From a bacterium (lineage in GTDB: Bacteria; Zhuqueibacterota; Zhuqueibacteria; Oceanimicrobiales; Oceanimicrobiaceae), in NCBI GenBank assembly GCA_037446635.1, contig JBBIIG010000005.1, positions 32,001-96,000 of the forward strand: a DNA stretch of 64,000 nt, written 5' to 3'. The notes under the pieces are model-generated. The model was not told where the DNA came from. It saw only the letters and a program-made list of their open reading frames with translations, and searched no databases. A program made the translations under genes and the position numbers. Positions 7,304 through 51,051 of the stretch are shown in pieces. Within the stretch, counting starts at the first letter, position 1. The number at the start of each line of letters is the position of its first letter.

Positions 7304-9145
7304 ATGAAAAAGCTAATCAAAACCTCGTTCCGCCTCATCATCAGCGCCTCGCTGATAGTCTTTCTCGTGAGCAAAACCAATCTCACGGAAATCTGGCAAT
7401 CTGCGAAGTCCGCGGACGCGCTGCTGATTGCGCTGGCGTTCCTGCTGCACGGCATCGGCTATTTTTCAAGCTCATGGCGCTGGCAAATTCTCCTCCGCGC
7501 GCAGGGCTTCGACGTGCCCGTGATGTACCTCGTGCGCTCGTACGCCGTGGCCATGTTCTTCAACAACCTGCTGCCGTCCACCATCGGCGGCGACGGCTAC
7601 CGCGCGTACGACACCGCCAAGTGCAACATCCCGCCGCTGAAAGCGCTGGCCAGCGTCATCGTCGAGCGCTTCCTCGGCATGTTCGGGCTGATGATTTTCG
7701 CGGTGGTGGCGCTGGCGGTCGCTACCGAGCTCACTACACAAATCGAAAACATCTGGATGTGGTCGCTGCTGACGTTCGGCCTGATGATCGCCGCCGTGTA
7801 CCTGATTTTCTTTCACAGCGGCAAAGTGCCGTGGCTGCGTCGCATTTTGAATCTCCCCGGCCTGGCGATGGTCAACAAGCAGCTTATGAAAATCACCGAG
7901 TCGTTTGCACCGTTCCGCGGCAAAACCCGCGCGCTCACGTGGTCGATGGTTCTGTCGCTGGTGCTGCAATTCAACGTGATTCTGCATTACTACCTGATTT
8001 CCGAAGCCCTCGGCCTGCACATCCCGCTGGTGAAATTTCTGGTGATCATCCCGCTCGCCACGTTCGTGCAGATGGCGCCGGTCTCCATCAACGGCATCGG
8101 CATTCGCGAATCGTTCTACGTTTTCTTTCTCTCAAAAATTTACGGCGCGCCCATTGCCGCCAGTCTGGCGTTCTCGTGGATCGCCTACGGCATGGTGGTG
8201 CTGCTCGGCGTGCTCGGCGGAATCATTTATATGTTTCGCAAAGACGCGGCGCCCGCGTCGATTACTTCAGACTCATTGAAAACCGCTCCCGACGCGTCGG
8301 GACAGGAGGCAACTATGGCTAACAACAATCGGCAAAGCCGATCCGCTCAGGCGGACAAGCATCAAATCATGGACACGCAGAAGGATTTGTTCGACGCGAA
8401 AAAGTCGAAGTCCAAAAAGTATCAGGAAATTTTCATTGGCGAGCCCGGCCTGTGGAAGATGATCAAGTACGAACTCGTCACCACGTTTTTTAGCTGGGTG
8501 CCGGGCGCGTTCGGGATTTTGCTGCGTTCGATTTTTTACCCGATGATTTTGGGAAAGGTGGGGCGCGGCGTGGCGTTCGGCGCCAACGTCGCCATCCGCC
8601 ATCCCGGTAAAATTTGCATCGGCGACAATGTGGTGATTGACGACAACTGCGTGCTCGACGCCAAAGGCCAGAGCAACACCGGCATCACTATTGGCAATGG
8701 CGTGTTCATTGGCCGCGGCACGATTCTGACCTGCCACAACGGCGACATCATTTTGGAAGACAACGTCAACATCGGCTTCAACTGCGTGATTTCCTCGCTC
8801 AGCAAAATCGTCATCAAGAAGAATCATTTGATGGCGGCGTTCTGCTATCTCGTCGGCGGCGATCACGACAGCGACCGCACCGACATTCCCGTGCTGTTTC
8901 AGGGCCGCTCCTCGAAAGGCATTACCATCGAAGAGAATGTTTGGCTTGGCGCCGCGGTGGCCGTGCTCGATGGCACCACCGTTGGCCGCGACAGCATCAT
9001 TGGCGCGCACGCGGTGGTGAACAAAAATGTGCCCGAGTTTGCCATTGCCGCCGGCGTGCCCGCGAAGTTTTTGTGGGATCGGCGGAAGGGGAAGGAACAT
9101 AATGAGATTTTAAAGGGAGAGAATGTTGCGCAGCCGGCTAAGTAG
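7304..9145 (+). CDS. Fused ORF: lysylphosphatidylglycerol-synthase-TM (flippase-like) membrane domain + hexapeptide-repeat acyltransferase; the latter has its own RBS and ATG at 8315
   Basis: SWRWQILL, FFNNLLPSTIGGD.YR, PVSINGIGIRE in the N-half; left-handed beta-helix repeats (IGDNVVIDDN, IEENVWLGA, GVPAK) in the C-half; AGGAGG at 8304-8309. Confidence 0.85.
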   Translation: MKKLIKTSFRLIISASLIVFLVSKTNLTEIWQSAKSADALLIALAFLLHGIGYFSSSWRWQILLRAQGFDVPVMYLVRSYAVAMFFNNLLPSTIGGDGYRAYDTAKCNIPPLKALASVIVERFLGMFGLMIFAVVALAVATELTTQIENIWMWSLLTFGLMIAAVYLIFFHSGKVPWLRRILNLPGLAMVNKQLMKITESFAPFRGKTRALTWSMVLSLVLQFNVILHYYLISEALGLHIPLVKFLVIIPLATFVQMAPVSINGIGIRESFYVFFLSKIYGAPIAASLAFSWIAYGMVVLLGVLGGIIYMFRKDAAPASITSDSLKTAPDASGQEATMANNNRQSRSAQADKHQIMDTQKDLFDAKKSKSKKYQEIFIGEPGLWKMIKYELVTTFFSWVPGAFGILLRSIFYPMILGKVGRGVAFGANVAIRHPGKICIGDNVVIDDNCVLDAKGQSNTGITIGNGVFIGRGTILTCHNGDIILEDNVNIGFNCVISSLSKIVIKKNHLMAAFCYLVGGDHDSDRTDIPVLFQGRSSKGITIEENVWLGAAVAVLDGTTVGRDSIIGAHAVVNKNVPEFAIAAGVPAKFLWDRRKGKEHNEILKGENVAQPAK

Positions 9146-9162
9146 GTGGGCGGTTTTGCCTC

Positions 9163-9440
9163 TGTCATTCCCGCATGCTTTTAGCGGGAATCCATTTGAC
9201 GAGAATGCTGGATGCCCGATTGAAGCATTCGGGCATGACAACGAAAATTATCGAATTGTCATTTCGAAGCTGAGCGCAGCGAAGTGAGAAATCTGACGGA
9301 GAATAGATGTCGCGAATCTGGTCGGAGTTAATTTGAAAGATCGGCTCTTCGCCAGATTCCTCACCCGACAATCGGCAGAGCCGATCCGCTTCGCGGAAAA
9401 GCGTCGGGATTCGCCTGCCTGCCGCAGGTAGGGAATGACA
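9163..9440. repeat. Two tandem GTCAT...ATGAC palindromic elements, the second with nested mini-palindromes
   Basis: TGTCATTCCCGC..GCGGGAATCCA/TGGATGCCCG..CGGGCATGACA (9163-9240); TGTCATTTCG..GAGAAATCTG/CAGATTCCTC..GAATGACA (9257-9440). Confidence 0.85.
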
Positions 9441-9474
9441 AAATTCGAGATTTTATTTGAACTTGGAGCACTAA

Positions 9475-9780
9475 ATGATTTTCGGCATCACACATCACGA
9501 TAAAAATCGACACGTCAACAAAGAAGCATTTTTGAATTTGGCGCCGGCGCGGTTGGCTGGCAAAGCGGTGAACAGTCTCATCCAGCAAAACATCGCGCTG
9601 GGAACATCCGAGATGAACGTCCCTACTATTGATGATGGCGTGGGACTCGCCATCGATGAGATAGATAAAGATCCTACACTGTTTGCAACGGTGTATTTGG
9701 ATTGTTCGAATGAAAACACAGTCAGAGACTGTGTGTTGGATCTGAATTGGATACGATTTTATTTGAACTTGGAGCACTGA
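9475..9780 (+). pseudogene. Truncated duplicate of the first 59 codons of the downstream asparagine-synthase-like gene
   Basis: 9449-9650 is a ~90% identical direct repeat of 9755-9956, including the RBS region. Confidence 0.9.
9714..9742. repeat. AACACAGTC-AGA-GACTGTGT hairpin element (second copy at 38794-38820)
   Basis: Reverse complement matches 38794-38820 apart from a 2-nt indel. Confidence 0.75.
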
Positions 9781-11721
9781 ATGATTTTCGGCATCACCCA
9801 TCACGATAAAAATCGACACGTCAACAAAGAAGCATTTTTGAATCTCGTACCGGCGCGGTTGGCGGGCAAAGCCGTTAGCAGTTTCATTCAGCAAAATATC
9901 GCGCTGGGAGCTTCGGAGATGAACGTCCCCACGATCGATGACGGCGTGGGACTCGCGTTCAGCGCGGATAAGAAAATCGTGGTGGCGGCATCGGGTAATA
10001 TTTTCGCCGCTGCTGAGTTTGCCGGAAGCAAAAATGAACCCGTCGCGCAAACCATTTTGCGGGCGTATCAGTCCGCGGGTGAAAACGGCTTCAAACATCT
10101 TAACGGACAATTTGCTGCCGCCATCTGGGATTCGACGCAAAACAAATTTCTGCTGGTGCGCGATCACCTCGGCTTCGAGCCACTGTTCTACTACTGGGAT
10201 GGCCAGACCCTCATCTTCAATTCGTTTCTCAGAGATTTGATTCGCCACGAGAATGTGCGCCGCGATTTCAATCATCGCGCCATCCGCAATTACCTGTTGT
10301 TCAATTACAATCCCGGCCTCGAGACGTTTATTCAGAATGTGCGAAAGGTGCGGCCGGGGCACGTGCTGGTTTTGGAGAATGGGAAGGTGGAGGAGAGGAG
10401 GTATTGGAGGCTTTCATACAATACCAGCGGCAACACCCCCCCTAGCCCCCCCTCAAGGGGGGGAATGGAAGTGGGTTCGAAGGGGGGAACTCTAGAAGAT
10501 TACAAAGCGGAGCTACTGCGGCTGACGCGCGACGCCATTCGCATCCGCACGCAGGAGACGGCGTCCGACCCCGGCGCGTTCCTCAGCGGCGGCATGGATT
10601 CCAGCTCGGTGGTGGGACTGCTGAGCGGACTCACCGAGCGGCCCATCCACACTTTTTCCTTTCGCTGCGAGGGCAAGTACGTGGACGAGTCCTACTACGC
10701 GCGAGTGATGGCTAACCATTACAAAACTCGCCATAACGAAATTCCGTTCACCGCCGACGAGCTGCTCAACTTTGAAAAAATGGCCGAGTGGATGGATGAG
10801 CCGCTGTGCGACATCGGCGTGGAGCTGGGGTCGTTCATCATGGGGCGCGCGGCGCAGGGCCATGTTCAGTACATCCTCACCGGCGATGGCGGCGACGAGC
10901 TGTACGCCGGCCACCCGGTGTATCTCGCCGATCAAATGGCCGCGGCGTTCGACAAAATTCCGGCGCCGCTGCGCGCGGGCGTGCTTGGCATCGCGGGGCT
11001 ACTGCCGGATTCCGATAAAAAGAAAAGTCTGTTGGTGAAAGCGCGGCGCTTCGCGTATAGCTACGGTTTCCCCGCGGAGCTGCTGAGCAATCGCTGGCGC
11101 ATTTATTACACCGGCGCGGAGCTGGCGCGTCTTTGCACTCCGGAGGTGGTGCAGCAATTCGGCGATCTCGACTCGTACCGCGATATCACCGATTTGTACG
11201 CCGACGCCGACGGCCCCGACCATCTCAGTCGCGCGCTTTATGGCGATTATCAGACGCTGGTGCATTTCCACGTTGACCGCCTGCGGCTGACCCGCGCATG
11301 GGGCATCGAGGCGCGCTTCCCGCTGCACGATTACCGGCTCGTCGAGTTTTCGGCGACCATTCCGTCGGCGCTGAAGATTCGCCCGCCTGCCTCAGGCCTC
11401 TGGCGGGCAGGCAACTCGCAGGTGAAATACATTCAGCACGAAGCGCTGGCCGGCGTGCTGCCCGATGAAATCGTTTTTCGCAAAAATAAAATGGGTCACA
11501 ATGTGCCGATGAAAAACTGGATGCGGGAAACTACCGTGTTCCGCGATTTGATGAACGACGTACTCTCCGAAACTGCGGTGAAGCGGCGCGGCATGTTCAA
11601 CGCGCCGTTCGTGAAACAGATGCTGGATCTCCATCTCCGAAAGAAAAAGGACTACTCCCATCGCCTCTACGCCCTCGTGATTTTGGAACTCTGGCTCAAG
11701 AAAAACATCGATAATCGATGA
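9781..11721 (+). CDS. Asparagine synthase-related protein lacking the N-terminal Cys; carries two in-frame palindrome insertions
   Basis: LNGQFA, RDHLGFEPLFY, LSGGMDSS, TGDGGDELYAG, EARFP; begins MIFGIT. Confidence 0.9.
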   Translation: MIFGITHHDKNRHVNKEAFLNLVPARLAGKAVSSFIQQNIALGASEMNVPTIDDGVGLAFSADKKIVVAASGNIFAAAEFAGSKNEPVAQTILRAYQSAGENGFKHLNGQFAAAIWDSTQNKFLLVRDHLGFEPLFYYWDGQTLIFNSFLRDLIRHENVRRDFNHRAIRNYLLFNYNPGLETFIQNVRKVRPGHVLVLENGKVEERRYWRLSYNTSGNTPPSPPSRGGMEVGSKGGTLEDYKAELLRLTRDAIRIRTQETASDPGAFLSGGMDSSSVVGLLSGLTERPIHTFSFRCEGKYVDESYYARVMANHYKTRHNEIPFTADELLNFEKMAEWMDEPLCDIGVELGSFIMGRAAQGHVQYILTGDGGDELYAGHPVYLADQMAAAFDKIPAPLRAGVLGIAGLLPDSDKKKSLLVKARRFAYSYGFPAELLSNRWRIYYTGAELARLCTPEVVQQFGDLDSYRDITDLYADADGPDHLSRALYGDYQTLVHFHVDRLRLTRAWGIEARFPLHDYRLVEFSATIPSALKIRPPASGLWRAGNSQVKYIQHEALAGVLPDEIVFRKNKMGHNVPMKNWMRETTVFRDLMNDVLSETAVKRRGMFNAPFVKQMLDLHLRKKKDYSHRLYALVILELWLKKNIDNR

Positions 11722-12663: not shown

Positions 12664-12685
12664 CGAGTGCTGATGTTTAGGATGT

Positions 12686-13049
12686 GGATTAATGGATTGT
12701 TGGATCAATGGATCAATGTAACAAAGATGTCATTCCGAACCTCGATGCTTTTTATCGGGGTGAGGAATCTGGCGGAGAGCGAAACGTGATATTGCGAAGG
12801 TACTTTGAAAAACGGCAACTCATCCCTCGTGTTCGCTGGGGATTTAAGCCCGCGTGCTCGGCCCGCCAAGGAATCTCCAGCAGAATTAATGGCTGTGGAA
12901 TTATATTCCATGCAGTTGAAGGAGATAAAATCTCAGGCTCATTTATTCCGCGTGGGATTACGTGGAAAAAACGGCGCGGAGCGACAAATCCCACGCGAGC
13001 CGGCGGGCCTTTTCATTGATCCATTAATCCATCAATCCAACGATCCATT
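12686..13049. repeat. TGGATCAA/TTGATCCA octamer inverted arms enclosing a half GTCAT element and a decayed gene fragment
   Basis: TGGATTAATGGATTGTTGGATCAATGGATCAATG (12686-12718) vs CATTGATCCATTAATCCATCAATCCAACGATCCA (13014-13049); GTCATTCCGAAC..GAGGAATCTGG at 12729. Confidence 0.8.
12790..13012 (-). pseudogene. Possible decayed Y1 HUH (IS200/RAYT-like) transposase fragment
   Basis: Translation FFHVIPRGINEPEIL..AWNIIPQPLILLEIP loosely resembles HVxxRGxN..AxxxMPNHxHLLLExP; HUH motif not intact. Confidence 0.3.
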
Positions 13050-13083
13050 TACATTAACTCGGATCAGAATAACAAATTAGATT

Positions 13084-25992: not shown

Positions 25993-28148
25993 AAGCACTG
26001 GTAACCGGCGCGGCCGGATTTTTGGGACGCCACATTGTTGAAGTTTTACAGAAGCACAAGTATGAAATCGTGACCGTGGTGCGTCCCACGAGCGATGTGA
26101 GTTTTCTCAGAGAAAGAAACGTGCGCATGATTGACGGCGATCTGCGCGATCCCAAAGTTCTCGCAAAAGCCGCCAAAGGTGTGGATGTGATCGTGCACGC
26201 CGCGGCGGCGCTGCGCGGCAGGTGGGAGGATTTCAACGAAATCAACGTCGAGGCGACGCGCCATTTGCTGGAGATAGCACTTCAAGAAAAGGTACAGCGA
26301 TTCGTTTTCATCAGCTCGATCATCGTTTACGATCACACCTCGGCGAAGGCGGGACACACCTTTCGCGAGGACATGCCCTACGAGGAGAAGCAGCAGACGT
26401 TTTACTGCAAAACAAAAATCGCGGGGGAGAAGCTGGTACAGCAGTATCACGAAAAAGGTTTGGCGACGACCATCATTCGCCCCGGCGCGCTCTATGGCAA
26501 GCACGGTCCGATGTTCATGTCGCGACTCGGCATGCCCCTCGGCAGCAATCGTTATCTGATTGTTGGCAACGGAAAATTGCCGTTGCCACTTTCGCACGTG
26601 GAAACGGTGGCCGAAGCGGTCTGGCTGGCGATTTCAAAAAAGGAAGCAATCGGTCAAATTTACAACGCCGTCGAAAGCGATACCCTCACGCAGCGTGAAT
26701 TTTTCGCGCAAGTTCGCCAGCATGTGAAACCGAAATTTTCCACCATTCGTGTACCGCTGCCGGTGATGAACTTCATGGCGATTTGTCTCGACAAATTATT
26801 GGGACTGGCGAAAATGAAATCGCCACTGAGTTTGTCGCAGATCCGACTTTGGGCCACGCCGTTTTTTTATTCAAATGAAAAAATCAGAACAGAGCTCAAC
26901 TGGCAGCCGGCAGATGTTCCCGCCACCGTGCGCGATATGCTTATTTGGAATAAGCAGAAAACACAGCCGAAGCGGAATCCGCCGGGCAACAAAATTAACG
27001 TTGCGATCAATTCCGACAAACAAGTTCGCGTCGGTGTAATTGGATGCGGCGTGATCTCCGGTCCGCATCTCGCTGCGCTGAGTCGCATCAAAAACGCTGT
27101 GGTCGCAGCCGTGAGCGATCCCGTTGAAACCGCGCGCGAAACAATGGCGAAAAAGTACAGCGTCATGAAATCGTATTCCAATTACAAAGAGATGCTGGAA
27201 AACGAAAAGCTGGACGCAGTGCACGTGTGCACGCCATCGCAGAGTCATGCCGAGATCAGCATCGCGGCGATGAATTGCGGCTGCCACGTGTTTGTGGAAA
27301 AACCGTTCGCGCTGACTGCCGCTGAAGCCAAGCGCATGTTGGCCTCTGCGAAAAAGAACAACGTGCTGCTCTGCGTCGATCACAATCACCTCTTCGACGA
27401 AGTGATGGTGAAAGCGCGCGCGATCATCGCCAGCGGCGCACTTGGTCGCGTCTCGTACGTGGAAAGCTGGTACGGCACCTCGTACAGTTCTGACGCCGGC
27501 AGCCGCTACCTGACGTGGGAGGGCCGCAACAACTGGGCGTACAACATGCCCGGCTCGCTTTATCAAAATTTCATCTCCCATCCCATCGCGCTCTTGTTGG
27601 ATGTGATGGGCGACGCGCGCGTGCACGGCGTGCAGGGGAAATTCAATCGCATCGTTCCCCACATGAAAACCGACGAGCTGCGGGTGATGCTCGAAAACGA
27701 AACCATGCTCGGCCTGCTCAGCATGTCGATGGCGGTTTCGCCGCGCTATTTGTTCGTGAATGTTTATGGCACCGCCGCCACGCTGAAGATCGATTTCCTC
27801 AACAAGTACGTTTTTCTCGACAAGCCCGCCGCGAAGCTGCCGCGCGTGGTGAGCCGCAGTCTCAGCGCCATGAAACAGGCGCGCATCATTTTTAGCTCGG
27901 GAATGAAAAACACGGTGCTCGGTTTGCTCGGAAAATACAACATGTATCAGGGCAATGAGACGCTCATTCGGCTATTTTACAAAAGCATCCTCGATGGCGA
28001 TCCGCTGCCCATCGCGCCGGAGGAAGGAGTACGCTCGATGGAAGTGATGGATGAGATTTGGACGAAGCTCGCCACCAGCAATGGCGCGTCTTCGTTAGCC
28101 AAAGTGCCGGTGAAGGGCAAGAAAACTTCGATGACCAAAGAGGATTAA
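25989..28148 (+). CDS. Bifunctional NAD-dependent epimerase (SDR) / Gfo-Idh-MocA oxidoreductase
   Basis: TGAAGFLG and YCKTK in the N-half; GVIGCG, HVFVEKP and DHNHLF in the C-half; TTG start after AAGGAG. Confidence 0.88.
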   Translation: MKALVTGAAGFLGRHIVEVLQKHKYEIVTVVRPTSDVSFLRERNVRMIDGDLRDPKVLAKAAKGVDVIVHAAAALRGRWEDFNEINVEATRHLLEIALQEKVQRFVFISSIIVYDHTSAKAGHTFREDMPYEEKQQTFYCKTKIAGEKLVQQYHEKGLATTIIRPGALYGKHGPMFMSRLGMPLGSNRYLIVGNGKLPLPLSHVETVAEAVWLAISKKEAIGQIYNAVESDTLTQREFFAQVRQHVKPKFSTIRVPLPVMNFMAICLDKLLGLAKMKSPLSLSQIRLWATPFFYSNEKIRTELNWQPADVPATVRDMLIWNKQKTQPKRNPPGNKINVAINSDKQVRVGVIGCGVISGPHLAALSRIKNAVVAAVSDPVETARETMAKKYSVMKSYSNYKEMLENEKLDAVHVCTPSQSHAEISIAAMNCGCHVFVEKPFALTAAEAKRMLASAKKNNVLLCVDHNHLFDEVMVKARAIIASGALGRVSYVESWYGTSYSSDAGSRYLTWEGRNNWAYNMPGSLYQNFISHPIALLLDVMGDARVHGVQGKFNRIVPHMKTDELRVMLENETMLGLLSMSMAVSPRYLFVNVYGTAATLKIDFLNKYVFLDKPAAKLPRVVSRSLSAMKQARIIFSSGMKNTVLGLLGKYNMYQGNETLIRLFYKSILDGDPLPIAPEEGVRSMEVMDEIWTKLATSNGASSLAKVPVKGKKTSMTKED

Positions 28149-28212
28149 TGGATCAATGGATTATTGGATCATTGTTTTTCATTAATCCATTGATCCAACA
28201 ATCCATTAATCC
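28143..28212. repeat. TGGATCAA/TTGATCCA octamer inverted arms
   Basis: GATTAATGGATCAATGGATTATTGGATCA / TTAATCCATTGATCCAACAATCCATTAATCC. Confidence 0.8.
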
Positions 28213-31024: not shown

Positions 31025-31055
31025 AGAGATAATCTAAAATGAGATTTTGAAAACT

Positions 31056-31127
31056 ATGAAACTTGCAATCATGGGCATCCGGGGCATCCCGGCAAACTAC
31101 GGTGGATTTGAAACTTTCGCGAATTGA
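31056..31127 (+). pseudogene. Stub 1: first 22 codons of the GT4 gene at 34552
   Basis: MKLAIMGIRGIPANYGGFETFA then N-stop; 64/66 nt identical. Confidence 0.95.
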
Positions 31128-31181
31128 GCTTTATTGAATAATTTCTTATTTTCATCAACTAAAAGTGGATCAGGATTTCTC

Positions 31182-31856
31182 ATGAAGCCGCAACTTTCGA
31201 TTCAGCATCTGATTGACGAAGCAAAAATCTTTTGCGAAATGGAATCGAAATACGAAAACAAAGAGTTGTTCGGGATTACGGATGGGAAGGCCGTCGGGAC
31301 TTTCATCGAGCACAAATTTCAGAATCATCTTGCAGCGAAGTATGAATACCAAAAGGGTTCTTCCGCAAACGGAATCGATTTCCCATCGCGATCATTAAAC
31401 ACGGATGTGAAAGTTACATCGGTGAAGCAGCCGCAGTCGTCCTGTCCTTTCAGAAATGCGCGGCAAAAAATTTATGGGTTAGGGTACAATCTTTTGATAT
31501 TCGTTTACGAAAAGAATGATGATCCTCGTAGAGCCACCGCAACGCTTGATTTCCTAAACTGCTCTTTCATTCATCAACATCGCACGGGCGATTTCCAAAT
31601 CACCAAAGCTTTGCGACAAATGTTGGATAACGAGGCCAACGCTGATGACATCATCGCCTATTTGAGTGATAGAAACTTACCTACCGACGAAATAGCTCTC
31701 AACGCGCTCGCCGAAGAAATCTTGACAAATCCACCTGAACAGGGATATTTGACCATATCCAACGCATTGCAGTGGAGATTGCAATACGGACGAATCGTGA
31801 AACTTGCTGAGTCAGTGGATGGAATTGTGAAAATCATAAACAAGCCAATCTCGTGA
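31182..31856 (+). CDS. Putative type II restriction endonuclease
   Basis: TDGKAVGTFIEH, GIDFP..TDVK (PD-D/ExK-like), QPQSSCPF; coupled to the MTase by a TGATG overlap. Confidence 0.8.
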   Translation: MKPQLSIQHLIDEAKIFCEMESKYENKELFGITDGKAVGTFIEHKFQNHLAAKYEYQKGSSANGIDFPSRSLNTDVKVTSVKQPQSSCPFRNARQKIYGLGYNLLIFVYEKNDDPRRATATLDFLNCSFIHQHRTGDFQITKALRQMLDNEANADDIIAYLSDRNLPTDEIALNALAEEILTNPPEQGYLTISNALQWRLQYGRIVKLAESVDGIVKIINKPIS

Positions 31857-33616
31857 TGAACAAATTGGAATATCAGTTTCACCAAAAACGCATCGAGTAT
31901 CTCAAACAGCGCTTTTCCGAAGTAACGGATTTTAGGGAAGCCAATGAGATCATCTCCGCGATTTCCGGGTTGATGGATTTCTTTCCAGAACAAGCTGATT
32001 ATCTGTCTTTTCTGGAATTACTCAAGAGGCAACGGCTTGTTGTCCGCGATGAAGAGCGGCGCGAGTACGGTGATTTTCAAACGCCTGACCACCTGACTGA
32101 CGAAGTTTGCACATTCATAAAAGGAGACATTCAACCGAGGGTTTTGATCGAACCCACTTTCGGAAAAGGTTCATTTATCCTGTCCGCGTTAAAAAATCTG
32201 CCATCTTTGAAAAAAATATTTGGAGTCGAGATTCACGAGCAGTACGTGTGGCATTCCAAGTTTAGAATCCTTGAATATTTTATTGATCATCCCGACTCCA
32301 ACCGGCCTGAAATTTTTCTGTTTAATGCCGATGTGTTCGATTTTGACTGGAAGGAAATTCGTAATTCTTGCGAAGAACCCTTGTTGATTTTTGGAAATCC
32401 GCCGTGGGTGACAAATGCAGAATTGAGCTCGCTGGGGTCAAGCAATATTCCTCGGAAATCAAACTTCAAACGACATAAAGGCCTCGATGCCATCACGGGA
32501 AAAGGCAACTTTGATATCGGCGAATTTGTAGTGCTCACCATGCTCAATGAATTTAGCAGCATGTCCGGAAGTATCGTTATGCTTTTGAAAAATTCAGTTA
32601 TAAAAAACCTGGTCTATGATTTGAGAAAAACAAACTATAAGATTTCTAATTTGAGATCATTTAGTTTTGATGCAAAAGAACATTTCGGTGCCTCCGTTGA
32701 AGCTTCGCTTTTCACCTGCGATTTCAATCAGACCCGATCCAACTTGGCATGTTCCGTTTATAGTTTGTCTAAACCAGCAGTCGTACAAAACTCGTTTGGG
32801 TGGGTGAAAGACAAGTTTGTCTCGAATATTGAGTTTTATCAAGCCAGCTCAAAGTATGATGGAGTATGTCCTTTTGAATGGCGTCAGGGCGTCAAACATG
32901 ACAATAGCAAGATTTTCGAGTTGGAAAAAGTTGGCGGTAAAACGTACAACGGGTTTGACGAGGAAGTCTGTGTTGAAGAAGAAAGAATCTTCGGGATTGT
33001 CAAAAGTTCGGACATAAAAGGTCAAATCATAAGCAGGCCAAGAAAGTACGTTATCATAACTCAAACTTATCTTGGGGAAGACACGTCAAGGTTGTCTGAA
33101 AAATTTCCGATGCTTTTCAACTACTTGAATTCTAAGCGAGAATTTCTGGAAAATAGAAAATCGTCGATTTACGCTGGCAAACCGGAATTTTCGATTTTTG
33201 GAATCGGAGAATATTCTTTCAAGCCGTTTAAGGTAGCCATTTCTGGATTATATAAAACCCCATCCTTTACTTTGATATTGCCCGAAAACAATAAACCTTT
33301 GATGCTCGATGATACTTGTTATTTTTTGAGCTTTGACCAGCTTTCCGATGCGGTGTTCACGTGGTTGCTGCTGAAGGATAGACGAACCCTCGATCTTTTG
33401 AAGTGCATCATTTTCGAGGATGCCAAACGTCCCTACACGAAAGAGATTTTGATGCGGATCGCTCTTGATGAAATCGCCTCCGATGCTGGCTATGATATGA
33501 TTGCAACTCAGCTTGAGGAATTGCAAAAGCAATTTGAGATTGGATTGGACTATGAGGTTTGGGAGAAGTTTCTGGATAAAATGAAGCGCCATCAGGAGCA
33601 GCTTGCTTTGTTTTAA
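31856..33616 (+). CDS. SAM-dependent amino (N6/N4) DNA methyltransferase
   Basis: GDFQTP, EPTFGKGSF (motif I), GNPPW (motif IV). Confidence 0.9.
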   Translation: MNKLEYQFHQKRIEYLKQRFSEVTDFREANEIISAISGLMDFFPEQADYLSFLELLKRQRLVVRDEERREYGDFQTPDHLTDEVCTFIKGDIQPRVLIEPTFGKGSFILSALKNLPSLKKIFGVEIHEQYVWHSKFRILEYFIDHPDSNRPEIFLFNADVFDFDWKEIRNSCEEPLLIFGNPPWVTNAELSSLGSSNIPRKSNFKRHKGLDAITGKGNFDIGEFVVLTMLNEFSSMSGSIVMLLKNSVIKNLVYDLRKTNYKISNLRSFSFDAKEHFGASVEASLFTCDFNQTRSNLACSVYSLSKPAVVQNSFGWVKDKFVSNIEFYQASSKYDGVCPFEWRQGVKHDNSKIFELEKVGGKTYNGFDEEVCVEEERIFGIVKSSDIKGQIISRPRKYVIITQTYLGEDTSRLSEKFPMLFNYLNSKREFLENRKSSIYAGKPEFSIFGIGEYSFKPFKVAISGLYKTPSFTLILPENNKPLMLDDTCYFLSFDQLSDAVFTWLLLKDRRTLDLLKCIIFEDAKRPYTKEILMRIALDEIASDAGYDMIATQLEELQKQFEIGLDYEVWEKFLDKMKRHQEQLALF

Positions 33617-33660
33617 AAAATTGCAAGTCTAAATTTGGGAAAAGAAAATTCTCAGTGACT

Positions 33661-33764
33661 TGTCATTCCGAACGCCGACGCCCTTTGTCGGCGGAGGAAT
33701 CTGGCGGCGCACAGATCGTGCTCAACCAGATTTCTCGCTTCGCTACGCTCAGCTCGAAATGACA
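33661..33764. repeat. GTCAT...ATGAC palindromic element
   Basis: TGTCATTCCGAACGCCGACG..GAGGAATCTGG / CCAGATTTCTCG..CGAAATGACA. Confidence 0.85.
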
Positions 33765-33820
33765 CTTCAAAGAGATTGGCTATTAATGAAGAATATTTTT
33801 TGAGGACTTGTTCGGAAAAG

Positions 33821-33934
33821 ATGAAACTTGCAATCATGGGCATTCGGGGTATCCCGGCCAACTACGGTGGATTTGAAACCTTCGCGGAGCAGCTCGTGTC
33901 ACGGCTGGTTTCGGCAAAGTCACAAAAAAAGTAA
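33821..33934 (+). pseudogene. Stub 2: first 30 codons of the GT4 gene at 34552
   Basis: MKLAIMGIRGIPANYGGFETFAEQLVSRLV then unrelated SAKSQKK-stop. Confidence 0.95.
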
Positions 33935-33954
33935 ACTGAAAATGAGGTGATAAA

Positions 33955-34185
33955 ATGCACGAACGTATTTCAATCGACCCAAAAGTCTGCCACGGCGAAG
34001 CCTGCATAAAAGGTACGCGCATTCCCGTGCACCAAATCGTTCGTATGTTGGCCAATGGCGACACAATCGAGGGGCTGCTGAAAGCCTATCCCTCAATTGA
34101 GCGCGAAGATATTCTCGCGTGTTTGGAGTATGCAGCAACTCTTGCAGAAGAACAAGTCGCGCCTATTGAATCGTTGGCAGAGTGA
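33955..34185 (+). CDS. DUF433 family putative antitoxin
   Basis: RISIDPKVCHGEACIKGTRIPV, YPSIEREDILACLEYA. Confidence 0.92.
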   Translation: MHERISIDPKVCHGEACIKGTRIPVHQIVRMLANGDTIEGLLKAYPSIEREDILACLEYAATLAEEQVAPIESLAE

Positions 34186-34535
34186 ACATGAAAATTTTTG
34201 TTGACGAAAACATACCGTCAATAACCGTCGCCGCCCTTCGCCACATGAAACACGATGTGACGGATATTCGCGGAACGCCGGACGAAGGCATGTCCGATGA
34301 GGACTTGTGGAAAAAGGTTCAGAAAGAAGGACGGCTACTCATTACGACAGACAAAGGCTTTTCGCATCATCGCAAAGAATCCCATCATGGAATTTTGATT
34401 GTTCGTTTGAGGAAACCGAACGAGATCAAAATTCATCAACGGGTGATGCGAGCGATGAACCAATTTAAAGAAAAAGAATGGTGCGGGTTGTTAGTTGTGA
34501 TGCGCGATTCGCTGCAAAGTACTTGGAAGAAGTGA
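34182..34535 (+). CDS. DUF5615 family PIN-like putative toxin
   Basis: IFVDENIP, SDEDL, LITTDKGF, HGILIVRL. Confidence 0.9.
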   Translation: MNMKIFVDENIPSITVAALRHMKHDVTDIRGTPDEGMSDEDLWKKVQKEGRLLITTDKGFSHHRKESHHGILIVRLRKPNEIKIHQRVMRAMNQFKEKEWCGLLVVMRDSLQSTWKK

Positions 34536-34551
34536 GGAATTAAATCCAACT

Positions 34552-35646
34552 ATGAAACTTGCAATCATGGGCATCCGGGGCATTCCGGCAAACTACGGTG
34601 GATTCGAAACTTTCGCGGAGCAGCTTGCGCCGCGGCTGGTGGAGCGCGGGCACGAGGTGACGGTGTACGGCCGCTCCAACACCATCCAATACGACGGCGA
34701 ATTTTACAAAGGCGTGCGTCTGGTGATTTTGCCGACCATCGCGCATAAGTATTTGGACACCGTCGCGCACACCTTCCTCTGCGTGCTGCACGCGCTTAAA
34801 GAACGCTACGACGCCATCCTCATCTGCAACAGCGCCAACGCCTATTGCGCCTTCATCCCGCGACTGGTGGGCACGCCCGTGGCCATCAACGTTGATGGCC
34901 TCGAGTGGAAGCGCGCCAAGTGGAACAAGTTAGGTCGCTGGTTCTATCTCATCTCTGAGCGGCTGGCCACCTTCACCGCCAACGAGATCGTCACCGATGC
35001 CCGCGAGATCGAAAAGTACTATCTCGAAAAATTCAACAAGCGCTCGACCTTCATTCCCTACGGCACACCCATCGGCAAAGTGGAAACGAAGGACGCGCTC
35101 GACAAATTTGGCCTACAGCCGAATGGCTACGTGCTGTACGTGAGCCGGTTGGAGCCGGAGAACAACGCCCATCTCGTGGTGAAGGCGTTCGAGCAGGTGA
35201 AGACCAATTTGAAGTGCGTCATCGTCGGCGACGCGCCCTACAACGGCGAGTACATTCAGAATTTGAAAAAGACCAGAGATCCGCGCATCATTTTTACGGG
35301 TTACGTGTTTGGACAGGGCTACCGCGAGCTGCAGTCCAACGCCTATTTTTATGTGCAAGCCACAGAAGTGGGCGGCACCCATCCCGCGCTTTTGGAGGGC
35401 ATGGGACACGGCAACTGTGTGTTGGCCAACGATGTCCCCGAGCACCGCGAAGTTTTGGGCGACGCCGGCGTCTATTTCAATAGCAAAAAAAATGGCGAAC
35501 TGGCAGAGAGGATGCAGCATCTGCTGGATCGTCCCCACGAAGTGGCGAAGTACGGTGAGAAAGCCGTGGCGCGCATCCGCGAGTTTTACACGTGGGAGAA
35601 GGTGACGGAGGCGTACGAGTCGTTATTCTCTAAACTGAGTCGGTAG
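34552..35646 (+). CDS. Glycosyltransferase family 4 (DUF1972-type N-terminus)
   Basis: GIRGIPANYGGFETF, NVDGLEWKRAKW, RLEPENN, EVGGTHPALLE. Confidence 0.95.
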   Translation: MKLAIMGIRGIPANYGGFETFAEQLAPRLVERGHEVTVYGRSNTIQYDGEFYKGVRLVILPTIAHKYLDTVAHTFLCVLHALKERYDAILICNSANAYCAFIPRLVGTPVAINVDGLEWKRAKWNKLGRWFYLISERLATFTANEIVTDAREIEKYYLEKFNKRSTFIPYGTPIGKVETKDALDKFGLQPNGYVLYVSRLEPENNAHLVVKAFEQVKTNLKCVIVGDAPYNGEYIQNLKKTRDPRIIFTGYVFGQGYRELQSNAYFYVQATEVGGTHPALLEGMGHGNCVLANDVPEHREVLGDAGVYFNSKKNGELAERMQHLLDRPHEVAKYGEKAVARIREFYTWEKVTEAYESLFSKLSR

Positions 35647-35670: not shown

Positions 35671-35887
35671 TGGAGTAATGGAGCTTGGAGTGGTGGAGTA
35701 ATGGATTGATGGATCAATGGATCAATGAAATGAAAATGCAAAGGGCAGATTTCAAAATTCAAAATTTGGTTTCACGTCTCACGTCTCACAGTTCACGTTC
35801 CAAAACTCCATCACTCCATCGCCCCGTCGCTATGCGCCATGCACATTCATCCATTGATCCAGTAATCCATTAATCCATTAATCCAAC
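35671..35887. repeat. Concentric stack of octamer/heptamer inverted arms
   Basis: TGGAGTAATGG..TGGATTGATGGATCAATGG ... TCACGTCTCACGTCTCAC ... ACTCCATCACTCCA ... TCCATTGATCCAGTAATCCATTAATCCA. Confidence 0.8.
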
Positions 35888-35903
35888 CAGAAAGAGGGAG
35901 GCC

Positions 35904-38742: not shown

Positions 38743-38862
38743 TCACGAATGACACAGATGGGCACGAATTTTTTGGTGAATCTTGCATGAATGGATCCAA
38801 CACAGTCTCTGACTGTGTTTAAAATTTCCTGTGGAAGGCTTGAACCACGAATGTCTCGAATT
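38741..38862. repeat. CACGAAT-type arms and AACACAGTC hairpin (38794-38820)
   Basis: AATCACGAATGACACAGATGGGCACGAATT; GATCCAACACAGTCTCTGACTGTGTTT; AACCACGAATGTCTCGAATT. Confidence 0.65.
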
Positions 38863-50928: not shown

Positions 50929-51051
50929 TCGCGCCTTCTATGTTGTGAGTGGATTGATGGATTATTGGATTAAGGCTTTACTCCGCGTTTGTCAACACTG
51001 GGACTTTTTCGTCATAGAACCGCTCGAATTCAAAAGTTGTGGAAATACAGG

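Follow-up and report, generated by a model that had tools for sequence, protein, structure and literature searches.

The first codons of an asnB-like gene occur twice, in tandem, in a 64,000-nucleotide stretch of a Zhuqueibacterota genome (the window, G000:C5:32001-96000; the genome is 4.64 Mb, 97% complete, with 0.3% contamination). The tandem is probably the scar of an integrase-free capture of DNA, with the captured fragment likely coming from a related strain. Features of the window are collected in Table 1, and coordinates given without a contig or locus refer to the window.

The two copies align without gaps over 202 nt with 20 mismatches (90.1% identity), and no third copy occurs in the 4.64-Mb genome. 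Each spans a 26-nt leader with a ribosome-binding site (RBS), codons 1 to 58, and 2 bases of codon 59. An earlier note on this DNA, made from the sequence alone, had described a roughly 90% duplication of the RBS and the first 59 codons, which the alignment bears out. Our recount of the codon differences also gives exactly its numbers, 12 silent and 4 replacement (codons 23, 33, 35, and 44). Per site, this amounts to 15 silent changes at 39 silent sites versus 4 changes at 135 replacement sites (binomial p = 3e-7). The mismatches are unevenly placed: the first 89 nt hold 2 of them, whereas the remaining 113 nt hold 18 (Fisher p = 0.0015). The copies are, to judge from these differences, distinct alleles that would both have evolved as coding sequence. 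The earlier note read the silent bias in the same way, and that part stands; its further step, that the bias alone shows one copy to be imported, does not, since a later allele swap gives an equal bias. The 104-nt spacer between the copies is gene-free and consists of two inverted hairpins, each opening with GATC (fold z = -4.5; the doublet).

To place the copies among relatives, we compared both alleles and their upstream context. The first 70 residues match once each in 13 of the 20 other family genomes, and the acyltransferase gene lies directly upstream of the asnB-like gene at 12 of these 13 loci, so that a single start appears to be ancestral. The scan of genome contigs returned no closer relatives, and a same-genus genome (74% complete) gave no match to the first-70-residue query. 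Four close metagenome loci, L021 to L024, show 81 to 88% nucleotide identity across the gene. Over 159 coding bases, copy 1 differs from copy 2 at 18 positions and from the working alleles of L021, L022, and L023 at 14, 17, and 11 positions, respectively; searching the copies against relatives, a check suggested in the earlier note, thus puts copy 1 nearer to a relative's working allele than to its own neighbor. At 20 differing coding positions, the copy 1 state is found in the working alleles of L021 to L023 at 13 and is private at 7, and the V23A change recurs in the working allele P0013.

The upstream context is more telling with respect to which copy is resident. The 30 nt before copy 1 resemble the pre-start DNA of L021 (1/2,000 shuffles) and L022 (20/2,000 shuffles), and the 30 nt before copy 2 show no resemblance to the pre-start DNA of these two loci. 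Further, the palindromic stack already seen just upstream in the earlier note is made up of multi-copy palindromes at about 9162-9440, pieces of which precede the working start in L022 and L024 (0/2,000 shuffles as good). The right end of the second palindrome type in the stack would represent the ancestral context of the gene start. Ancestral upstream context on copy 1 and its absence at copy 2 therefore argue that copy 1 is the stranded resident start.

Copy 1 opens a 101-amino-acid open reading frame (ORF) that has no Pfam match. A protein search with it gave 8 matches among 10 candidates: itself, P0004 (probably a cut-off working gene), and six truncated starts. A search among shorter proteins added a seventh truncated start. 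All seven (P0002, P0003, P0005, P0006, P0007, P0008, and P0016) depart from the gene at codon ~53-54; the joints of all except P0005 were read from protein sequence. The doublet follows the joint in the window's frame in P0002 and P0003, and in another frame in P0007 and partly in P0006. P0008 has the same joint without the doublet, and in P0005, which is L023, a Fic gene follows the stranded start. Doublet-free versions, versions with only the hairpins (which resemble repetitive extragenic palindromes [REPs]), and Fic-bearing versions all exist at the shared joint; the window's tandem may thus have lost its cargo or never have had any, the two options given in the earlier note. The relation between the window spacer and the DNA behind Fic in L023 is weak (33/2,000 shuffles as good). 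The longest contigs for P0002 and P0007 are 4,332 nt each and both read the doublet, and one contig may hold both of these stranded starts.

The window departs from this pattern. It reads TI-DDGVGLAI-DEIDKDP, whereas P0002 and P0003 pass from TI directly into the doublet in the same register. Copy 1 of the window extends 8 codons past the shared joint and is re-joined 24 nt out of register, and the stretch that follows it holds the equivalent of codons 51 to 54 plus a few bases. The joint likely arose once and spread, with the window copy being one fresh, imprecise re-joining. In X8, data from another study, a 6,437-nt contig (contig 24) carries 9475-9636, then 66 unaligned letters, then 9732-9986, which is the same tandem. 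One X6 contig has a doublet-free junction with only one GATC and matches P0008; another, of depth 2.6, reads the doublet and then a 27/30 match (by eye) to the 3' end of the L023 Fic gene. The joint and loose ends of X4 match L021 to L023 and were left out as not independent, and run X1 yielded two 100%-identical pieces (8900-9007 and 9110-9301), none over the duplication. The earlier note had presented the tandem as an independent event in this genome. As a kind of gene-start replacement it holds, but it is not a one-off, being a structural allele shared with relatives.

The junction is variable beyond this joint, with the 3' end of the upstream acyltransferase gene as its left border. L021 to L024 all hold different inserts between the acyltransferase and asnB-like genes, with Fic/SoFic, HNH, PIN, Gp49-like, DUF2971/PDC-S31, EcsC-like, and further genes. 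The acyltransferase 3' end is duplicated in L021, L023, and L024, and in L021 and L024 a palindromic repeat alone separates its copies. L021, L022, and L024 have a single asnB-like start, with other inserts further upstream. A check suggested in the earlier note, to look for strains with genes between the copies, is answered by L023, where a Fic gene and then the asnB-like gene follow a stranded start. This locus (L023:1-5845) is an array of no fewer than four inserts, with two copies of the acyltransferase 3' end and one of the asnB-like start lying between them, and the stop of its stranded start overlaps the Fic start codon. Elsewhere in the window, three starts of a family 4 glycosyltransferase gene surround a Type II restriction-modification pair (31134-33616) and a DUF433/DUF5615 pair, with two different joints. 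The earlier note had regarded the asnB-like tandem as the same gene-start replacement as this sister site, and the triple start is indeed of that kind.

Table 1. Features at the duplicated start, its sister site, and a related hairpin, in window coordinates
Feature	Position	Strand	Remark
Upstream gene: LPG_synthase_TM membrane domain and hexapeptide acyltransferase in one ORF	7304..9145	+	Pfam
Stack of two multi-copy palindromic repeat types	9162..9440	.	many genome copies
Copy 1, putative stranded resident start: 26-nt leader with RBS, codons 1-59 of the asnB-like gene	9449..9650	+	
101-amino-acid ORF: 59 gene-start codons, then spacer, stop just before the working ATG	9475..9780	+	
Nonhomologous joint	9651..9669	+	putative remnant of the older shared joint
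Inverted doublet of GATC-tagged REP-like hairpins (REPIN-like); sole cargo	9670..9742	.	
Copy 2, working leader and start, putative incoming allele	9755..9956	+	
Intact asnB-like gene, 646 amino acids, Asn_synthase and partial GATase_7	9781..11721	+	Pfam
Sister site: three family 4 glycosyltransferase starts (31052-31121, 33821-33909, working 34548-34640)	31052..34640	+	
Single GATC hairpin without flanking duplication	38794..38819	+	

Stranded gene ends are not confined to these two sites. In a genome-wide scan for local direct repeats (at least 30 nt, at least 75% identity, at most 3 copies), 17 pairs had the lone copy downstream of a gene's 3' end and 8 had it upstream of a start, with 1 + 1 pairs of opposite polarity and 6 scored internal. 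This polarity contrast appears only once multi-copy repeats are set aside together with pairs whose two copies both lie in genes; a cruder probe scan, with tandem paralogs included, gave 30/30 outward and 22/16 inward hits. Hand curation left 26 pairs at 22 genes, 43 to 524 bp long, with 0.28 differences per silent site (pS) and 0.045 per replacement site (pN; pN/pS of 0.16), and with frameshifts in 8. Dropped from the set were two C8 pairs that adjoin a run of N, three REP duplicates (C2 twice, C53), a doubtful C38 pair, three int_down pairs, and the two opposite-polarity pairs; a C6 pair was added, and C18 and C36 were re-assigned to minus-strand genes. The C8 repeats of a gene 3' end (C8:52969-53493) are probably a scaffolding artifact.

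The host genes of stranded ends include hemB, lptD, and the genes for malate dehydrogenase, glutamate dehydrogenase, phosphofructokinase, and purine nucleoside phosphorylase. Cargo matches BrnT, ParE, TumE, or DUF433/DUF5615 at 7 hosts and DUF4160/DUF2442, DUF2283, or UPF0150 at 3 further hosts; we take the latter group to be toxin-antitoxin associated. Spacers are mostly 35 to 50% GC versus 49 to 59% for most genes, and where a gene has two stranded copies, their joints differ. The inner halves of the 26 pairs differ slightly more than the outer halves (11.4% versus 8.9%, p = 0.013). In relatives, DUF433 loci are bracketed likewise in 9 of 60 cases by automatic calling and in 6 of 60 after removal of three with spurious host ORFs; the 60 had been hand-picked for long contigs among the matches listed, and the control (3 of 200 random junctions) comes from this genome only and is not matched to them. 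At C6:82674-83023 (L148), a 175-bp tandem whose spacer is 1 nt long takes in the start of a Na+/H+ antiporter gene together with its leader, and this is the present design lacking any insert. Three GIY-YIG ORFs, all short (89 to 105 amino acids as open frames), lie at C6:91719, C94:106, and C4:20504, one of them just beyond a stranded tetR end.

The spacer element is REP-like and, as an inverted doublet, REPIN-like. One of its hairpins had been noted to recur at 38794, and the second spacer hairpin does match that site at 27/29 bases. A loose hairpin pattern occurs at 23 places in the genome, many of them doublets. A stricter pattern occurs 18 times in the window genome and 110 times in G002 and is present in 11 of 121 class genomes, with 0 in the reversed control. 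REPs are not systematically present at stranded-end joints (29 joints, by eye). In five REP-rich genomes, 1 of 17 Y1_Tnp loci, a candidate for the cognate transposase (RAYT), has the doublet on both sides, although there the doublet is part of an identical repeat of greater length and other palindromes lie closer to the gene; the protein of this candidate has no tblastn match in the window genome. At L181 (G002:C129), two identical repeats of >120 bp, each containing a GATC doublet, enclose a Y1 transposase gene, and the site is possibly another insertion with a long duplication.

In the capture that we propose, a donor fragment would bring a related strain's gene start together with a short spacer before it. 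One homologous crossover in the gene and one nonhomologous joint would then push the resident start upstream in truncated form while the gene stays intact. The resident copy may first have been truncated, at codon 53-54, by a single event in a forebear of the clade. From then on the structure could be passed around like any insertion allele, since the stranded start is a left homology arm inside the same conserved gene and both sides can align with a single-start chromosome. Spread of this sort would refresh the stranded copy with local alleles, and a REP doublet, or a Fic gene in another line, would have come to fill the spacer. In the window line, a further capture may have involved a donor piece ending ~10 nt inside the old stranded copy and joined at codon 59. 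As for geometry, we lean tentatively toward a donor piece whose ends were joined to each other and which then entered by one crossover, in preference to linear one-anchor integration, which is conceivable though doubtful. Stranded starts would lie upstream and stranded ends downstream because only events that leave a whole gene survive. The genome encodes Ku beside a LigD-like ligase, ComEC, and DprA. When a one-anchor donor was used in Escherichia coli, duplications were present in 56 of 60 recombinants (109 to 950 bp in the 14 sequenced), and these were ascribed to re-circularization followed by a single crossover (PMC3240628).

Several observations weigh against this capture. The copies differ from each other at 1 of 26 leader bases but from relatives at 4 to 7, a private leader haplotype, and the outer 89 nt look recently shared, which needs conversion or a later allele swap and not a single capture. 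Neither a donor nor an immediate empty-site strain was found, and the direction of transfer is read from context. The presence of competence and end-joining genes does not imply their use, and a 306-bp circle is a small substrate for a single crossover. The re-joint has ~1 base of microhomology and no deletion, whereas homology-facilitated illegitimate recombination (HFIR) usually shows 3 to 10 bp (PMC3240628). Finally, although 12 of the 30 amino acid changes in the seven stranded copies also occur in a working allele, H8Q is common to three stranded copies and occurs in no working allele; therefore, some stranded copies were inherited and not refreshed, and the set looks like a mixture of refreshing and inheritance.

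Some weight goes to a different origin, in which slippage or unequal exchange duplicated the start locally and homologous recombination later replaced the body of the working copy with a diverged allele. Near-identity of the outer 89 nt, the leader haplotype private to both copies, the more diverged inner halves across the 26 pairs, and the existence of the C6 pair with its 1-nt spacer are all compatible with it. Yet it gives no spacer and no low-GC cargo at other sites, the copies here do not abut, and copy 2 is without the ancestral upstream context. We consider local duplication unlikely as the sole origin; together with allele swapping, it probably acts on top of capture, not instead of it. 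The doublet might alternatively be a mobile element whose insertion duplicates the adjoining gene end, being a multi-copy, patchily distributed inverted repeat, with REP-only spacers between the acyltransferase 3' copies of L021 and L024. This is improbable: the REP of L021 and L024 belongs to a different family, and both P0008 and the first X6 contig have the duplication and the same joint without the doublet. Of 20 hairpin copies checked for flanking direct repeats, only that of this locus sits between gene-terminus copies, which rules out the hairpin as the cause of the duplications in general. Nor do we give much more than passing credence to the remnant of a site-specific integrative element that supplied a replacement start and later lost its integrase and cargo. 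One fixed joint in seven relatives, the Fic gene at this joint in L023, and the Fic 3' remnant behind the doublet in the low-depth X6 contig would suit such an element, but the spacer, the scanned ORFs of the L021 to L024 inserts, and 19 further sites yielded no integrase (for C34, a 13.7-kb site, by visual inspection only). Doubly stranded genes, moreover, have two joints, and the window joint is shifted by 24 nt.

Two further explanations had been named in the earlier note as ones that would undo its reading. The upstream ORF might be kept as a functional small protein, or as a translational leader coupled to the gene, given that its 101 codons are open up to a stop directly before the working ATG and that the L023 counterpart overlaps the Fic start. 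Its homologs, however, agree to codon 53 only and then run on in differing frames, with tails of different frame and length. In P0008 and P0016 a frameshift precedes the joint, P0003 carries 10 inserted residues, and the stranded copies are more changed than working alleles (30 changes over 7 versus 19 over 8). Single-start relatives, too, have a stop before the ATG, and a function for the ORF is very improbable. An assembly chimera of two strains is harder still to credit. No public run contained half of the query words and none of the listed pieces spans the stretch, but the same tandem lies within the single X8 contig from another study, and in public ORFs the stranded start, the doublet, and the leader are read in one run. 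L023 is built in the same way, contamination of the genome is low, and a repeated polarity is unlike chimeras.

The duplicated gene itself belongs to a sugar-synthesis cluster. Its product begins MIFG, and Pfam GATase models match from residue 89 onward only (window 9781-10040). The N-terminal cysteine, which we take to be typical of class II glutamine amidotransferases, is absent, and the glutaminase domain may be inactive. An in-frame palindromic insertion (10430-10495 in the window, also P0010 to P0015) forms a proline/glycine loop whose copy number varies between relatives, and a second repeat-derived in-frame insertion past residue 77 varies in P0011, P0012, P0014, and P0015. Palindromic repeats thus seem to enter the asnB-like coding sequence in frame. 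Intergenic arrays of an 8-nt unit, in facing orientations, lie at 12684-12730, 13006-13054, 28140-28212, 35685-35892, and 50950-50979.

Many free-living prokaryotes carry dozens of small toxin-antitoxin and defense genes without a nearby integrase or transposase. Taken alone, the asnB-like locus is a modest scar, left by a known but little-studied route of DNA addition at gene ends without an integrase. It is also a minimal, gene-free case of an insertion in which the target duplication is long, with relatives that share one joint. The gene-free case and its relatives imply that a structure of this kind can be kept without restriction enzymes in the cargo. They also imply that the two copies are alleles rather than newly made duplications of the target, and that the site is used more than once. 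We speculate that stranded gene ends might serve as reusable recombination handles: a rare joint, perhaps with Ku/LigD circularizing fragments, would create a portable, integrase-free cassette site that spreads through a clade, swaps its cargo, and builds integron-like defense arrays. If so, the two arms of the cassette site would both lie in one conserved gene, the cargo swapped would range from nothing through a REP doublet and Fic to toxin-antitoxin and restriction-modification genes, and the process would rank among the principal ways in which stand-alone toxin-antitoxin and defense genes move in such lineages.

Among the titles and abstract openings searched, which covered few subscription papers, we came across no account of toxin-antitoxin or REP-only cargo within gene-terminus duplications; part of the search yielded mostly restriction-modification literature. 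Several known systems nevertheless share parts of the anatomy. Integrative elements such as e14 in icd and SXT in prfC provide a replacement gene end, leaving a working replacement and a stranded original fragment as here; unlike them, the present sites have no integrase found, varying joints, and inserts mostly of <3.5 kb. Unlike those of an integron, the boundaries are gene-terminus copies and not attC-like (no search for IntI or attC was made). The spacer resembles REPINs (PMC3337134) in being a multi-copy, extragenic element built of two REP-like hairpins, inverted and set apart by a spacer, and differs in its GATC tags and in that the window genome has nothing related to one candidate transposase.

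The re-circularized donors and HFIR of PMC3240628 would share with this locus one homologous and one nonhomologous joint, to judge from the anatomy of the sequence here, and the experimental duplications match the size of the genome pairs. That work, in the portion available, is a laboratory plasmid system in E. coli, and classical HFIR differs in its deletion and microhomology, neither of which is seen at the re-joint. Similarly, in the type VI secretion system effector-immunity arrays described in PMC5361080, and in Rhs and contact-dependent inhibition orphan ends, a new module arrives at a conserved anchor and the old part is shifted outward, with integrase-free build-up in the former followed by block movement through homologous recombination. 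As far as the available text of PMC5361080 goes, those arrays swap toxin domains of one gene family, whereas the anchors here are unrelated housekeeping and polysaccharide genes, which are used at either end and carry cargo that has no relation to them.

The closest class is the insertion with long target duplication (Furuta 2010, PMC2853133), in which an insert of <20 kb without any other mobile-element gene lies between direct repeats of >30 bp that often span a start or stop codon and keep the target gene whole, and for which the mechanism was left as a hypothesis. The 202-bp repeats, the 104-bp insert without a mobile-element gene, and the single copy in related genomes (a same-species empty site was not found) agree with that description. 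Restriction and modification genes are absent from this locus, although present at the sister site; the cargo is a REP doublet here and mostly toxin-antitoxin-type genes elsewhere; the repeats are ~10% diverged with a silent bias, unlike the near-identical ones of that study (44/46 to 47/47 in the table rows available); and one joint is reused with different contents. The supplementary figures of that paper may include diverged or gene-free cases. The locus thus works like an insertion with long target duplication and is not a member of the class as defined in the available text of PMC2853133.

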